From positions 45,880,001 to 45,944,000 of the forward strand of contig OZ024746.1 of assembly GCA_964016885.1 (NCBI GenBank): 64,000 nucleotides of DNA, read 5' to 3'. How positions within the stretch are numbered: the stretch's first letter is position 1; every line of letters starts with the position of its first letter. The notes beneath the pieces are model-generated. The model did not search any database, was not told the origin of the DNA, and saw only the letters and a list, made by a program, of their open reading frames with translations. The translations under genes and the position numbers were made by a program. The DNA comes from Eledone cirrhosa (Eukaryota). Positions 11,282 to 36,431 of the stretch are shown here, one piece after another.

Positions 11282-11850
11282 CAAGGTACACTCAAGAGGT
11301 TTTGAGACTTTTATCAGAGAGACATTTATTTAATTCATATCAACACAAAACTCTAGTCCCCATCAAAGTAGGATCCTCCAACTTCAATGCACTTGTTGTA
11401 GCACTCCAACCACTTCTGGAAAGCCCCCGCTTCCTGTAGTCCTCCAAAGTAAAGGTGTCCAGCCTGCTTCATCTCCTCCACATCCTCAAAGCAAATGTCC
11501 CTGAGTTTCTTCTTCAGCTTTGGGAATATCCAGAAGTCACATGAGGCTAAGTCAGGACTGTAAGAAGGATGATGGACAGTCTTGATCCCATATTGGTCAA
11601 GTAGTTGGTCACTAGGATGTAATTTTGGCAGGAGGCTTTGTCCTGTTACAGGTGCCACTGACCAGATTTGACGAGTTCTGGTTTCTTGAGATGAAATCTC
11701 TTTCTGGACTGGCATAAAACCTCTATAGTAGTCTTTGTTGACTGTCTGGCCATGAGGGACCCAGTCGATGTAGATGATGCCCTTGCTGTCGAAGAAAGGG
11801 GTCATCATGAGCTTCCCAGTGAACCTACTTTGTTGGGCCATCTTTTCCCT
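11282..11850 (-). mobile_element. Mariner (Tc1/mariner) transposase C-terminal relic with one terminus
   Basis: FFDSKGIIYIDWVPHGQTVNKDYY; HPSYSPDLASCDFWIFPKLK; KCIEVGGSYFDGD. Frameshifted, with a TA-flanked end near 11280. Confidence 0.9.
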
Positions 11851-12185
11851 GGGGATAAAAATTATTTTTACTGCAGTTTCAAAGAATAATGGAAAGCCTT
11901 TCAATATATTGATATGGTCATCGTTAACAGAAGGATTTCTATTCAGAGAATTTTCTGTGTAGTTTAAGAAAATAATAACTATATACCTGTTAACAGTATC
12001 ATTTACTGCTCCCCATATGGTGAGCTGATAGTCTATATTGATTGCTATTTCTAGTGGCAGTTTAGACTCGTGACTTTGTCGTCTGTATATATGAATATTT
12101 ACCTTGTTGATAGATCTACACATGCATACAGGATTAATTTTTTCACCACGTGGGTTCAATGAAGAATGAACACACTTCTATTAAC

Positions 12186-12247
<62 letters not shown>

Positions 12248-13139
12248 AAAGAATGAAGAGTAACATGGTTGGCTGTCAGGTATTGACAATTGTTTCATTG
12301 ATCAGGTGAGTCTAGAGGTCGCTAATCGCTCGAAGTTGCGTCATATTACCTATAACGATAACTTGTTACTCCATATATATATATTTAATGCTGGAGTCAT
12401 GAAAAAACATCCAGTACACCTTGTTAGAAGGTTGGTATTAGGAAGAGCATCCATTATAGAAACCATGCCAAATATGGAACACATGAGCCAGTTGAGCTGC
12501 TTGGACCTGTCTGGTCTTGGATTATGACAACCTGTCCAGTTCATGCAAGAATTAAAGTGGACATTTAATTATGAAGATGATAATAATGATGATGAGGATG
12601 ACAATAATGATGATGATGAAAAATCTATATATTAGAGTTGAAGAATATGTTAGAGCAATATTCATGACATCTTAAGGGCATTATTATTCCAATTGAAGTG
12701 AATTCAAGATAAATAAGGTTAGAAACTGTGCTCTAGTTTCAACTTTTTATATTATCTCCATGAAACTATTATTAGCATATTATTATTGTTTCTATAAAAT
12801 TTGCTGTATATGCCTGTGAATACTTACAGACATTTCCACATGCTGCTCTTTAGGTGTCCTCAGAGAAAGCTATAAGGGATTTGCAGTGAATAAGCAGAAA
12901 AATTAGGAAATTGGCCTATCAAGAGAAAAGCTATTAGTTTTCGTTACTGTCATTGTACTATGACCTGGTTAAAACAACTTACCATAATTTTCAGTTCACT
13001 TAGCAAAACCTGAGAGTGAAAGATATGGTTGACAAGTTATAAATAAAATAAAAATAATATAATATAGCAAAACTTATTTCAATGATAATACTTAAGTGGA
13101 ATAGGAATAAAATAGAATAGCAAAACAGAATTATATAAA

Positions 13140-13292
13140 TTAATTGTTTCTACTTTTGGCACAAGGCCAGCAATTACCCAGTGCATTACTGGTACTTTAT
13201 TTTATCGACCCCGTAAGGATGAAAGGCAAAGTCAACCTCGGCGGGATTTGAACTCAGATCGTAAAGGGACGTAACTATGCTGGAAAGCATGG
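13140..13292 (-). mobile_element. 5'-truncated SINE family A
   Basis: Family A body; TSD ATTATATAAATTAAT at 13130-13144 and 13293-13307. Confidence 0.9.
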
Positions 13293-15271
13293 ATTATATA
13301 AATTAATGACAGCACTGCAGCATTGGGAGTAGAAATATACATTTCTGAGGGACAAAGATAGGTTAAAAGACCAACACTATTACTAGTTGACACACATATA
13401 TATATGTAACATTTTGTTTTGAGAATTGGTTTATTATTGAATTCTCTGTAGGGAAAATATATAATTTGTGTTTTAGAAAACGCTATATGATAGTGAAATA
13501 GGAGGGGTAAAAGTAAATAGACATTTAATGAATGAGAATTCATAGCGTAATTTATGTTTGAATGTATTCAAATCTCAGGTGAGAATATAAAATGTCTGGT
13601 GTAATTTGTAAAAAATTATAAGAGGAATATGTGATCAGAATATCATGATTGATTGAATGTTGCAAGATTTTAGCAAACATGATATGATATTATATACTCT
13701 CTTTACATGACTTCAAATTATCAGAAGGAATAATGAAGGGTTGCTCTAACTGTTAACACGAAAACACGCCAATTAAGATGATATAAATTAGTTAATTTAA
13801 TTAACAAACATATTGATTTCATTTTAGATTTTCAAGAGTTTACAATGGATGCAGTAAATTATTTTGATGTTAAACCCATTTCCCCTTTTATCATGCTCTA
13901 TTATTCTGAACATCAATTACTACATTCCTTTTATTTATTAGTACATGTACTAAGAACAATTGCATGTGTGATTAGTGCAAGCCACTTAAGAGGAATAAGT
14001 TGGGTATACTCCATTAGGAAATTATGTGAAAGGCAGAGCTGAAGGAGTTGTGAAGATGATTGTATGCTCTTTCTCCTCTGAATTAATCAGAGAAAGAGGG
14101 ATATCACCAGTAGCATATGGCATGTGCTGTTACAAGGTGTGCTTGTATGCTGAATTGACTATTCTGGCCTAACTATAAACATACACATTTTTGTCTATTT
14201 TTATTCACAGCATGACTTCTATTTAATTTAACTTGGTTTTTCAATGTCTTTTATTATATTTGAAAACAAATCATGACCATATTATATTATGATACAGTAT
14301 GGACAGAATTGATATTAAGAAAATTTCATTTCCTATTTTTAGAAGTATGAATGAATTGATAATTTAGCACACACAGAATGTATAGCAACTATAGCTTATA
14401 CAGGCCATTTGAGGAGGGCAAGGTTGATGCAGTTGATGTTGAGTTTGACATTTGTAATGACCAAATTTTGTTTTGATAGGAGATGGGTAGAAAGTACATT
14501 CCAAAGTTGTGGGGATGATGAATTGGCAACAATGTTTAGTATGGAGTCTAGTGGGACGAGATATAGAAGACTTAATGAGAGGAAGGAAAAAAAGATAGAT
14601 CAAGTAAATTTGGGTGGAAGTGGAACATAGTTAGTTTATTCAAAAGAGTAGGTACCATTGCAATAGTAATAGAAGAAACAGAAAACCAAATACACATGAT
14701 GATGGTAAGTTATTAGTTGGATGACTGTTTGGGAATTTGGTCTAGAATGTTTGAATGTGTAGCAATTGTACCTTCTCAATTGTACCTACTTTTGTACTAA
14801 GTATAATATTAGCAGTTTTAAGATTCTGCATTGACTATCAACATCATCTTCATTGCTGCTTAATATCTATTTTTCTATGCTAGAATGGGTTAGACAAGTT
14901 GTCCCATTGTGACAAAAGCCAGATCAGATGACAGTGCCTTGCTCATACAAGGCTGCTTTTGGCTTGGTTTCTGAAGCTGGATGCCTGTCTTAATGCCAAC
15001 CACATTTACTGGACTGAGATCTTTGGTGTTATGCAGTAATACAGAAGACCTGCCTTCCCATGAGCACAGGTTGAAGCATGCAGCTAGTATGCACCAACTT
15101 AACCTCCATCCCCCCTTCCATACATCTCCCACATCCTAATATTCCAACCCCTCAAACATGCCCCTATAACCACCTCTTAATCCCCACACACCTCCACCAC
15201 CAAAGTCCCCAGCACACTGGTGTTGTGTCTAAGGAGGTTGTGGGTTAATGATAGTGTTGGCCCATGCCCCA

Positions 15272-31507: not shown

Positions 31508-31740
31508 TAATAGAGGGATGCATGTGTTTATGGTATTTGAGATACAACAATGTGTATATTTGTAAACATAGCAGAATTTCACAAGCATTGCAACTGGGAA
31601 ATATACCTATATTTTTGTGAAAACACAAAGATACATAATATATAAAACTATAAGGAAATTGATGGAGTTGATCAAACTCCATTTTGTGTCTAAGTAGCAC
31701 TACACCATCCATGGCTCATGACTCCAGAGCCACTGCCACT

Positions 31741-31937
31741 TTAACCCTTTAGCATTTAAACCACCCACATCCAGCCAGAATTTTCTCACCTCTTTCTGAT
31801 TTTAAGGTATTGTTCTCAAAGTGAATAATATCAAGATCTCATAGATTCGATATTATGTGAGATAATTATGGGAAGTAAAGCCTTTACCATGAAAATATAA
31901 TAGTAAACATAGAGTAATGTAAATGCTAAAAGGTTAA
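31741..31937. mobile_element. piggyBac-type MITE
   Basis: TTAA-CCCTTTAGCATTTA ... TAAATGCTAAAAGG-TTAA. Confidence 0.85.
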
Positions 31938-32757: not shown

Positions 32758-34287
32758 AAGATGCAAATACACATACAAACACACACACGTATACATAAAT
32801 ATGTCTGAAGAAATTGATGTATTTAAACACATCATCATCATCATCATCTTAATTTTTTACATCTACTTTTTTCAGTGCCGTATAAGTTGAAGTAAGTTTT
32901 CTATGGCTAGATGCGATCTTTGATTCAAACACCTTACTTTTTTTAAGTATTGTGTGTACCACTAACATTCATCAAACCAGTACATAACAGGTTGTATTGT
33001 TTATGGGAAACATAAAAAAAGCTGTCCGGGTTTTATAAGCAATGTAATGTTTGTAGTAACTGACATACACACATACACCAACACACACACACACATACTA
33101 AGAATTTCAAAGTTCTTACAACATACACACATATACATACAAACAATCATACATATAGTAGGGTTCCTTACAATTTCCATCTATCAAATTTAGTCATAAG
33201 ACATCGGCTCATCTTGGTTTATAGTAGGAGAGCATTGCCTAAGGTGCCAAACTGTGAGACTGAATCCCAAATCATATGGTTTCAATGCAAATTTGTATGT
33301 GGGTATATGGGTGAGTGAAGAGTCTAAATACATCTGTTTTTGGTTATATTTCTGTGTAACAGTTTAAAATAGATGTGCCAAAAAGCAGGACTAAGAAATT
33401 CAAAGTTCTTACAACATGCCCATGCTGTTTCAGGAAAATGTGTTTTTGTTAAGCTTTATCAAGGAAGTATTGAGGTGCTATGGATTTGGTTTATAAATAT
33501 TGGTTTGGTTAGAGGCAGAGAGTGCAGGAAAGATGAGGAGATGAGAGAGAGAGAAGGCTGAGAGGGAGAGACAAATGGGAGAGGGGAAGAAGAAAGAGAG
33601 GATGACTTGAAAAAATTGGTAAGAGCATGACTGAAAAGAATTTGAACTAGAAGAATTGTTGGTTATATATAAATGTGATGGTTGTGGTATGCTAGAGGTT
33701 CAATTTGATTAAGATAGCAGTAGTAGTGACAGAGGGGAAAATTGAGGATAGTGAGCATAATGGGAGTTTGAGGAAGTGGGGACAGAGAAAAGGTTGTTGT
33801 TGAAAAATAAAACAGTCTATGAAGTAGACAAAAATAGAAATAGACTTACAAATATGGAAATAAATTGAAAGGCCAGATGCACAGATAAGATTGTGGTACC
33901 CTTGGTTTTCTAAATCTATGATTTACATATCTAGGATTTACTGAGACAAATATGTGGAAAAAAAGCAAAAGAAGAAAATGAATAAATTAATGAGTAAATA
34001 AGCATTCAGTGTCATCAATTTTTTCCCCTTTTTGCTTCTAGAACTTCTCTAATGCTTTTCTTTCTCTCTCTTCTTTCAAATGTAATTCCTAAGAATCTTT
34101 TAATTCTTAAGTTTCCTTTGTTCTGTATCTGTAAACATAAAGTCATAAGACAGAAACATCTAATATCTGTTCTTCATGGCAATGTTTCACCAGCTTGTCC
34201 ATGTGGCACAGCTAGGAGACACTGTTTAGCCAGGAGTGTTGAGTTTTCCCCTTTTCATCTTTCTAGTTTTCATTATTTAACCCTTTA

Positions 34288-34680
34288 GCGGTGGATTGGC
34301 AGTATCGGTAGAGAGTCGAACACCATGCTTTGAAGCATAGAGTTACATCCCTTTATGATCTGAGTTCAAATCCCGCCGAAGTTAACTTTGCCTGTCATCC
34401 TTACGGGGTCGATAAAATAAAGTACCAGTAATACACTGGGTAATTGCTGGCCTTGTGCCAAAAGTAGAAACAATTATTTAACCCTTTAGTGGTGGATTGT
34501 CAGTATCGGTAGAGGGTCAGACGCCATGCTTTGACGCATAGAGTTACATGCCTCACCATTCTGAGTTCAAATTCCGTTGAGGTTAACTTTGCCTCTCATC
34601 ATTAAGGGGTCGATAAAATAAAGTACCAGTAATACACTGGGATAATTGCTGGCCTTGTGCTGAAAGTAGAAACAATTATT
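34288..34680 (+). mobile_element. Two tandem SINE family A copies inserted in the left end of a piggyBac MITE
   Basis: ATTATTTAACCCTTTAG is repeated at 34272, 34473 and 34675 around two SINE bodies. Confidence 0.9.
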
Positions 34681-34904
34681 TAACCCTTTAGCATTTAAAC
34701 CGGCCGTATCTGGCCAGAATTCTCTCACCTCTTTCTGTTCAAACTGTCCGTAATCAGCCATTCATATTGACATTAAGGTATTGTTCTCAAATAAATATCA
34801 AAATATTATAGATTCGATATTATGTGAGATAATTGTGTAAGATAAAGACTTTACTAGAAAAATACAATAGTAAATATAGAGTAATGTAAATGCTAAAGGG
34901 TTAA
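34680..34904. mobile_element. piggyBac-type MITE, same family as 31741-31937
   Basis: TTAA-CCCTTTAGCATTTA ... TAAATGCTAAAGGG-TTAA, with shared internal sequence. Confidence 0.88.
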
Positions 34905-35488
34905 TTTTTCTCTCATCCTCTTTTTTCTCTTCCTATTTATAGTTTTAATATTAAAAAAATTCTTTATCATTGAACACAATCTAAACTGCGTCCAGAATAT
35001 ATGTTTGTTATCCCGTTTGTAAAATAAGTTGGATTACTTTGAATAAATAACTGTTTCTACTTTTTGGCACAAGGCCAGCAATTACCCAGTGCATTACTGG
35101 TACTTTATTTTATTGAACCCGTAAGGATGAAAGGCAAAGTCAACCTTAGCGGGATTTGAACTCAGATCATTAAGGAACGTAACTATGCTGGAAAGCATAG
35201 TTAAATAAAATAAAGTACCAGTAATGCACTGGGTAATTGCTGGCCTTGTGCCAAAAAGTAGAAACAATTATTTATTCAAAGTAATCCAATTTATTTTACA
35301 AACGGGATAACAAACATATATTCTGGACGCAGTTAAGATTGTGTTCAATGATAAAGAATTTTTTTAATATTAAAACTATAAATAGGAAGAGAAAAAAGAG
35401 GATGAGAGAAAAATTAACCCTTTAGCATTTACATTACTCTATATTTACTATTGTATTTTTCTAGTAAAGTCTTTATCTTACACAATTA
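34830..35488. repeat. 285-bp inverted duplication centred on a truncated minus-strand SINE A
   Basis: Arms 34830-35114 and 35204-35488 are near-identical reverse complements. The direct repeat ATTACTTTGAATAAATAA lies at 35033-35050 and 35485-35502. Confidence 0.92.
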
Positions 35489-36431
35489 CTTTGAATAAAT
35501 AATGAATGAATATTACATAATTTATGTACTAAATTTCGTAACTATAAATAATTTTATTGCTTATTTAAAGAGTCAGTTCTTTAAAATTTTCAAATGTCAC
35601 CACTTCCGGTTAGCACCCGTTATATTATAACACTTCTAAAAACATTGCATATATTTCCGTCGCTAATTTTCTCCTAATGCAGTTTGTATATAATGTCATC
35701 TTTTTTTAACGTAGCATGGATTACTTTACTGATTACAGAAGAGAGTGTAACACAGTCTGTCTTCAATTTCTGTGGATATTGTGAATTACGATTTTATTTG
35801 ATGTATCATATCTACATGTATATATATTTGTGTATAATATCAAAATGCACACACTACACATACTAGCAGAAAACCCCTCGTAGGGTCGTTTTTCTGCTAG
35901 TTTATATAATACATATGATTTTCAGAATTTTAATCTTTATAAACTAAACAAATTTATTTTTATTAAAAGTCAACTAGATACTGCACTTGTACTTATTATT
36001 TTACGTAACTGTCTCTTTCTACCTTGAACATTTTTTAATGGAAACAATAAATGAATCTTGAAGAGATGGATAGAAAAATTCCTTTACCATCTAATTAACT
36101 CATATTCTTAATTTTCAACCAACTATTTCCTCTTATCCTCTCTCATCTCTCCTTCTGACCATATCTGCCCTACATCCTTCCATCCTTTCCTTTGCCATTC
36201 CATCTTCTTTACTTTCCTACACCTTTTAACTCTCACCACTTTTCTATTATAAACCAAATCCACAACACTTTAATACTTCTCTGATGAAGCTCTTAGCACA
36301 TTACACATGCTTTGGTGAAATTTCATGGCCATGTTGTAATATTATAAACAAATGTCTCCCTCTCTCAGGAAAAAGGATGTTAAACAATGATGACACGCAC
36401 ACACACACACACATACACACACACACACACA

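Follow-up and report, generated by a model that had tools for sequence, protein, structure and literature searches.

The window analysed here, a 64,000-nucleotide stretch of the Eledone cirrhosa genome, contains a palindrome built around a SINE. A repeat scan placed its inverted arms at 34830-35118 and 35200-35488 (289 nt, 99% complementary) with four mismatches, three of which are substitutions (34983, 35028 and 35051), while the fourth, at 35115, is the inner junction. The clean arm, 34830-35114 on the left side, is 285 nt long with three true mismatches, and 221 nt of its inverted copy are target DNA. The same scan found an 18-nt direct repeat, ATTACTTTGAATAAATAA, at 35033-35050 and 35485-35502 (18 of 18 nt identical), and a third, inverted copy at 35268-35285. 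Along the plus strand the order is flank A, target-site copy 1, the SINE as its reverse complement, AGTTA, an inverted run of SINE tail, target site and flank A, target-site copy 2, and flank B.

Repeat scan and alignment together define the left arm (34830-35114, plus strand), composed of flank, target-site copy 1 and SINE tail, as the putative template of a fold-back. Target-site copy 1 (35033-35050, plus strand) is single in the empty paralogues described below, and its 3' end would have been the primer for reverse transcription. The SINE (35051-35198, minus strand, the plus strand being the cDNA) belongs, on alignment to the family majority, to the youngest subfamily seen; it is a dispersed family member with an intact 3' tail and a truncated 5' end (208,945 exact tail motifs in the 3.0-Gb assembly), and sequence and folding both place its end at the native 5-bp stem ATGCT-GGAA-AGCAT (35185-35198). 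At this point AGTTA (35199-35203) stands in place of the family GGTGT, which makes a perfect 10-bp hairpin, TAACTATGCT-GGAA-AGCATAGTTA, at 35180-35203 on the plus strand. Beyond the hairpin lie the inverted SINE tail (35204-35267, plus strand), the inverted third target-site copy (35268-35285, minus strand) and 203 nt of inverted primer-side flank (35286-35488, minus strand; 221 nt with the target copy), which ends in the right end of a MITE (35414-35488, corresponding to 34830-34904). Target-site copy 2 (35485-35502, plus strand) has its first four nucleotides in common with the end of the inverted arm, so that the outer junction shows a 4-nt overlap (TAAT at 34830-34833, ATTA at 35485-35488). 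The right arm lacks a complement of 35115-35179, a single-copy spacer of 65 nt recognized by alignment on the plus strand, and re-enters the tail at a GTT/AAC match (35200-35202 and 35116-35118) with one mismatch. This omission went unstated in the initial annotation, which had otherwise described the structure well: the coordinates of a minus-strand SINE following 35033-35050 and ending at its internal stem-loop hold, the repeat scan bears out 35204-35488 as the reverse complement of SINE tail plus upstream DNA, its roughly 220 bp of inverted flank with one MITE end is 221 nt with the target copy, and the rejoining of the second target copy through ATTA is the 4-nt overlap just given. No open reading frame of at least 90 aa overlaps the palindrome and the locus shows no sign of function. 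A tRNA search with ARAGORN found none, and the SINE matched no named family in the parts of the compared literature that were available (PMC4824008, PMC4758252).

Insertions of TTAA-duplicating elements of the piggyBac type are marked by terminal inverted repeats starting with CCC. The MITE at 34680-34904 is bounded by TTAA on either side and has terminal inverted repeats of 14 nt that start in this way (18 nt perfect with the TTAA included), and on these grounds we take it to be piggyBac-like; the inverted arm includes a copy of its right 75 nt. A second copy lies in the window near 31740-31937, and there are many in the assembly. At the left end of the MITE, 34277-34691 holds two older tandem SINE copies, each followed by a TTAACCCTTTAG repeat with a period of 201 nt, which are repeated insertions into the same target. 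Elsewhere in the window, a 274-aa stop-to-stop frame at 11353-12177 resembles, by eye, a decayed mariner-type transposase.

The target site itself lies in a high-copy host repeat, whose left part (34980-35050, plus strand) was delimited on 10 aligned empty copies and begins at TC following an A, and whose right part (35503-35900, plus strand, by repeat scan and alignment) ends in a hairpin and CTAG followed by T; to judge from these letters, the repeat ends may be Helitron-like. There are 4,502 exact copies of the target motif in the assembly. In 13 of the 15 host-repeat copies viewed, flank A runs straight into flank B through one target copy, which shows that the target duplication is real; the other two hold a SINE at the same nick. 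The empty copies, which are paralogous sites, lack the inverted repeat. Where SINEs have entered this host repeat elsewhere, the right-hand target copy starts with ATTAC in L043, L078 and L102, three of the six with a distinct boundary, and starts 1-5 nt shorter in L078 (second copy), L179 and L113. The ATTAC starts mark 35485 as a boundary of ordinary insertions, and it is exactly there that the inverted arm joins. SINEs have targeted this site of the host repeat repeatedly (L179 at 1407-1701, L078, L101, L102, L113, L043 and L047), and L179 is a second flank-copying fold-back at it, of 93 nt. Contigs from public runs, the best of which share 0.22-0.42 of sequence words, were compared with 34200-36200 (X4-X6 and X1) and 35262-35560 (X1-X4); these contigs are repeat-fragmented and none of those listed bridges either junction, nor does any of them show an orthologous empty allele, matches being swamped by repeats. 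Their loose ends revealed the target to be part of a repeat. One X4 contig matches 35433-35488 exactly, at a depth of 33 compared with 15-20 for nearby unique contigs, and then diverges for 10 letters.

The perfected hairpin recurs. The initial annotation held that it replaces family sequence, and exact copies of the family form AGCATGGTGT indeed number 2,498, as opposed to 37 with AGCATAGTTA and none for a reversed-pattern control; a second SINE subfamily has 77 perfected stems, of which 15 were viewed. Folding is predicted at -8.5 kcal/mol (z -5.1) with AGTTA and at -3.4 kcal/mol without it, the native stem at the cDNA end being itself predicted to fold. In 21 of the 36 hairpin copies viewed, out of the 37, the sequence folds back for 7-16 nt and then resumes the SINE head, returning at four different short matches (12, 6, 2 and 1 copies, as read from the sequences). 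This resumption suggests fold-back while the template was still engaged, that is, during reverse transcription. The remaining copies end in a target copy, in filler or in a longer fold-back, and the locus at 35180-35203 is the only one of the 36 to run on into flank. The largest group of returns shares AGTTACG followed by ACCC (L012, L014, L016, L020, L021, L024, L025, L033, L036, L152, L153 and L156), and four of these 12 have a common poly-T tail; they are likely a SINE variant born by snap-back and then re-mobilised. As this variant looks amplified from a source element, AGTTA at 35199-35203 could have come with the RNA template. At the A/T subfamily site our locus is T-type while 9 of 11 members of the AGTTACG-ACCC group are A-type, which favours a new event, and we consider it probable that AGTTA arose as one here. 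In L032 and L036 the perfected stem (about 1500-1524) encloses a four-base loop in flipped orientation with respect to the SINE strand.

The initial annotation had asked for a genome scan for SINE copies followed by inverted flank. Genome-wide there are 1,200 head-to-head pairs of SINE tails 60-300 nt apart, of which we sampled the first 50 (49 loci, lying in the first 174 Mb of one contig) and 40 of the 309 short-gap pairs (50 listed, nine already in the first sample), so that 89 were viewed. Inverted flank was called by gapped extension at thresholds of our choosing (score at least 15, at least nine distinct trimers). By this measure 13 of 49 first-sample loci carry an inverted flank copy, or 12 of 49 after one SINE-in-SINE case is dropped, as do 22 of the 40 short-gap pairs, compared with three of 400 mismatched pairings serving as the null. 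The 12 of 49 extrapolate to about 290 loci genome-wide (95% range 160-470), or 0.14% of the 208,945 tails. Copied flank tracts run from 15 to about 370 nt, the 221 nt of the present locus being among the longer ones. The target copy lies cleanly at the arm end in L076, L082, L130, L144, L159, L163, L177, L193 and L195; many siblings have no clear second target copy, and some outer junctions contain short templated or untemplated fillers. In L175 (1459-1886), 41 nt of flank were copied, after which the SINE head was completed and the insertion closed in an 18-nt target copy, which is the best single case for a reverse transcriptase copying chromosomal DNA in mid-reaction. Two fold-back loci on one contig, L129 and L192, share the same flanking sequence, from a host repeat or a duplication; this match surfaced as a hit among the mismatched pairings. 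The flank-copying palindrome is a recurring by-product of this SINE family and not a one-off.

Siblings allow the mechanism to be examined as a class. Snap-back of a single strand requires the longer SINE arm to lie on the original side, which the fusion of two cDNAs does not. Polarity could be scored in 23 siblings in which the target copy was found in one orientation only (a few of them resting on low-complexity targets), and the longer arm lies on the original side in 21 (P = 7e-5), the exceptions being L118 and L184. Overlap at the outer junction averages 2.5 nt in 11 siblings, with the microsatellite case L121 left out, compared with 0.78 nt expected by chance (P = 0.001). In 28 of 30 cases the two arms have the same base at the subfamily site, compared with 50% in random pairs, and at our locus both arms carry a five-T variant present in 12 of 289 other tails. 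The shared five-T variant, the polarity and the subfamily site indicate that one and the same cDNA molecule served as template for the inverted copy.

The ages of the arms were compared across the class with L149, L151, L161 and L166 excluded, and L173 also for the contrast of stable with hypervariable sites. At stable tail sites the arms differ at 14 of 460 positions and share a derived base at one, the difference being near the 2.2% mismatch between sibling flank arms; the arms appear to have been copied when the SINE was new. Hypervariable tail sites behave differently, sibling arms differing at 24 of 223 (10.8%), compared with 14.6% in random pairs and 3.0% at stable sites (P = 1e-4); given the agreement at the subfamily site, we tentatively read them as mutating anew in each copy. 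One hypervariable stretch, beside a 5-bp hairpin, is the tail motif GCAATTACCCAG (window 35078-35089), which often differs between otherwise identical young copies and even between the two arms of one fold-back, suggesting a hot spot of mutation or polymerase error. L131 has six mismatches in its 93-nt SINE arm and none in its 109-nt flank arm. At our own locus, polarised on host-repeat and SINE copies, two derived bases lie on the right arm and one on the left (the left arm is ancestral at 34983 and 35028, the right arm at 35051), which means that ageing in the genome has affected both.

We conclude that the palindrome is a SINE insertion that likely arose in a single event, through snap-back of the cDNA during target-primed reverse transcription (probability about 0.8). 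A self-primed cDNA that switched to its own strand and read on into the chromosome had been proposed in the initial annotation, and the empty paralogues, the siblings and the polarity in 21 of 23 support it. In the sequence of events that we envisage, the endonuclease of a partner LINE would nick after ...AATAAATAA (35050), and the other strand would be cut before 35033. Reverse transcription would then copy 148 nt of SINE RNA and reach the stem at 35185-35198, where the cDNA end would probably fold back and extend itself by 5 nt; otherwise the perfected stem would have arrived with the RNA. Because the right arm lacks the 65 nt, either two switches or a later deletion is called for: the end may have re-annealed 65 nt further back at the 3-nt match, from where synthesis, displacing a strand or following a resected end, would have run along the tail, past the priming nick and for 203 nt along the chromosome, or the 65 nt may have been deleted later from a perfect palindrome. 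The new ATTA end could finally pair with the 3' overhang of the other target end, from which second-strand synthesis would fix the palindrome. The synthesising enzyme seems rather more likely to have been the reverse transcriptase itself than a host polymerase such as Pol theta, because sibling products return to RNA-encoded sequence after copying DNA. Pol theta makes snap-back inserts and also copies RNA, so the return to the SINE head does not settle the enzyme. The LINE fragments at L024:1590-3024, presumably Dong/R4-like and each bounded by (TAA)n arrays, include a CCHC motif, a piece of reverse transcriptase and a region of restriction-like nuclease. They were rejected as the partner because they lie in opposite sense to the SINE tail and have other 3' ends, those of two fragments being unlike the tail by eye.

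The spacer complicates the timing, for while the class data fit a fold-back before the 5' junction formed, the spacer at this locus looks older than the arms. Together with position 35114 it has seven changes from the subfamily majority in 67 nt, the most among 56 copies of the young subfamily; outside CpG there are three in 55 nt, compared with arms that differ at three of 285 (P ~0.011 for the three non-CpG changes, if all are post-insertion). This excess suggests that the insertion is older and its arms younger or homogenised, that the source RNA was divergent, or that the loop is mutable; either of the last two could account for it, as could arm conversion or a later duplication. No source subfamily with all the spacer variants was found (one exact and 62 one-mismatch matches), the closest copies among the 19 of 62 viewed sharing 3-4 of nine derived bases with the spacer. 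An ADAR-type change was rejected as the cause, none of the seven changes being T>C on the cDNA strand. With the 65-nt skip, an AGTTA that possibly came from the RNA template and a spacer more diverged than the arms, 'complete record', as the initial annotation had it, is too strong.

The excess of spacer changes (P ~0.011) also speaks for a two-step history, in which an ordinary SINE insertion, truncated at the stem, was later acted on by a replication or repair polymerase that folded back at the hairpin, copied 285 nt and came back where target copy 2 begins. Truncation at this stem does occur in other copies, for example at window 13135-13306. Nonetheless, we regard this history as unlikely: the polymerase would have to return exactly on the nuclease boundary, here and in at least nine siblings, derived bases shared by both arms are nearly absent from the class (one compared with 14 unshared), and siblings resume the SINE head after the fold-back. 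More improbable still is that two cDNAs on replicated sister ends were joined head to head, after which the fused sister broke at a distance of 203 nt and its end was united with the other end of the target, along the lines of a second model in the accessible text of PMC11702581. It would account for differences between arms that are nearly as frequent at hypervariable sites as those between unrelated copies, for the mismatch pattern of L131 and for the two polarity exceptions, but it predicts no polarity where 21 of 23 was observed. In addition, 28 of 30 arm pairs agree at the subfamily site, and the five-T variant, found in 12 of 289 other tails, is common to both arms of our locus.

That no listed public contig bridges either junction, among contigs fragmented by repeats, could be taken to favour an assembly or read chimera, a fold-back artefact. 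Such an artefact would give identical arms, whereas three sites differ and derived bases lie on both arms, and it would give no target duplication; dozens of siblings exist besides, and we give it hardly any credence. The same very low standing falls to twin priming, or to a pair of independent SINE insertions, head to head, within an inverted repeat that was already there. Of the 49 first-sample head-to-head pairs, 37 have no inverted flank copy, and some of these are independent insertions. Twin priming, as the available text of PMC2912911 describes it, inverts only RNA-derived sequence and not 221 nt of target DNA, and a pre-existing repeat is contradicted by the empty host copies, which lack it; the inverted repeat moreover includes the SINE tail and three target copies.

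The joining of non-LTR insertions at their 5' end, and the question whether reverse transcriptase or a host polymerase makes the DNA-templated additions, are still argued from few engineered or tumour events. A few hundred inherited cases with both target ends preserved would allow polarity, tract lengths, overlaps at the junctions and returns to the RNA template to be counted; insertion by snap-back also offers a way for palindromes with short spacers and host DNA in them to arise. The class, chiefly through its polarity test and the SINE-head return, is of more value than this locus. On balance we lean slightly towards a partner reverse transcriptase that toggles between RNA, its own cDNA and chromosomal DNA in natural germline insertion, leaving a few hundred fixed palindromes (with 15-370 nt of host flank), one stem-loop hot spot and no fewer than one SINE variant that snap-back created and that was then re-mobilised. 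If that reading is true, the genome offers a natural census, and a large one, of an intermediate known until now chiefly from engineered or somatic insertions.

In the literature searched, whose coverage is limited so that absence from print is not established, we found no report of a natural SINE with this build. The closest parallel comes from insertions made by an R2 protein (PRINT), for which the accessible text describes snap-back 5' junctions: before the 5' junction forms, the 3' end of the cDNA primes on its own cDNA or, less often, on nearby target DNA, and antisense element sequence ends joined to the target (PMC11371274, PMC11331408). By that definition our locus is alike, its 5' junction being fused to the reverse complement of its own cDNA plus nearby target (35199-35488), and by analogy the SINE snap-back here may work as that of the R2-type protein does. 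In the same available text, PRINT placed engineered transgenes at one rDNA site of human cells in culture, and the junctions were observed mainly by short-read sequencing (PMC11371274, PMC11331408), whereas the insertions here are natural inherited SINEs at many sites, with continuous synthesis from cDNA through the priming nick into flank and an intact target duplication.

Human L1 provides the other comparisons. Nam et al. 2023, in the part of the paper available, describe foldback inversions of somatic L1 in which 52-220 bp of target flank are duplicated inverted at the 5' head, in three cases (0.3%) plus one combined (PMC10191854). The flank length of our locus (203-221 nt) matches their range of about 50-220 bp, and the rarity is similar (0.14% here). 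Their flank (process C), going by the text, derives from the 5' upstream side of the target, while ours comes from the primer (3') side of the SINE, and unlike in their L1 cases as there described, the duplicated flank here is preceded by inverted element tail and target copy. L1-linked foldbacks likewise involve, in the sections available, a cDNA-extended end that self-anneals into a hairpin, with local inversions and templated inserts; those hairpins were ligated into chromosome-scale foldbacks, with local inversions at the reciprocal end, whereas the hairpin here was resolved locally into a stable 0.7-kb palindrome (PMC11702581). L1 templated insertions, as far as the accessible text goes, comprise 22 inserts, each a duplicate of under 250 bp of sequence lying within 15 bp of the insertion point, somatic tumour events proposed to arise when the cDNA leaves the RNA (10.1101/2024.08.27.596794). 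Twin-primed 5' inversions also place an inverted element segment, with microhomologies, inside one target duplication, but that segment, in the portion available, is RNA-derived only, whereas our locus has inverted target site and flank (PMC2912911). Snap-back has its precedent, then, in engineered R2 insertions, as inverted flank copies have theirs in human L1.
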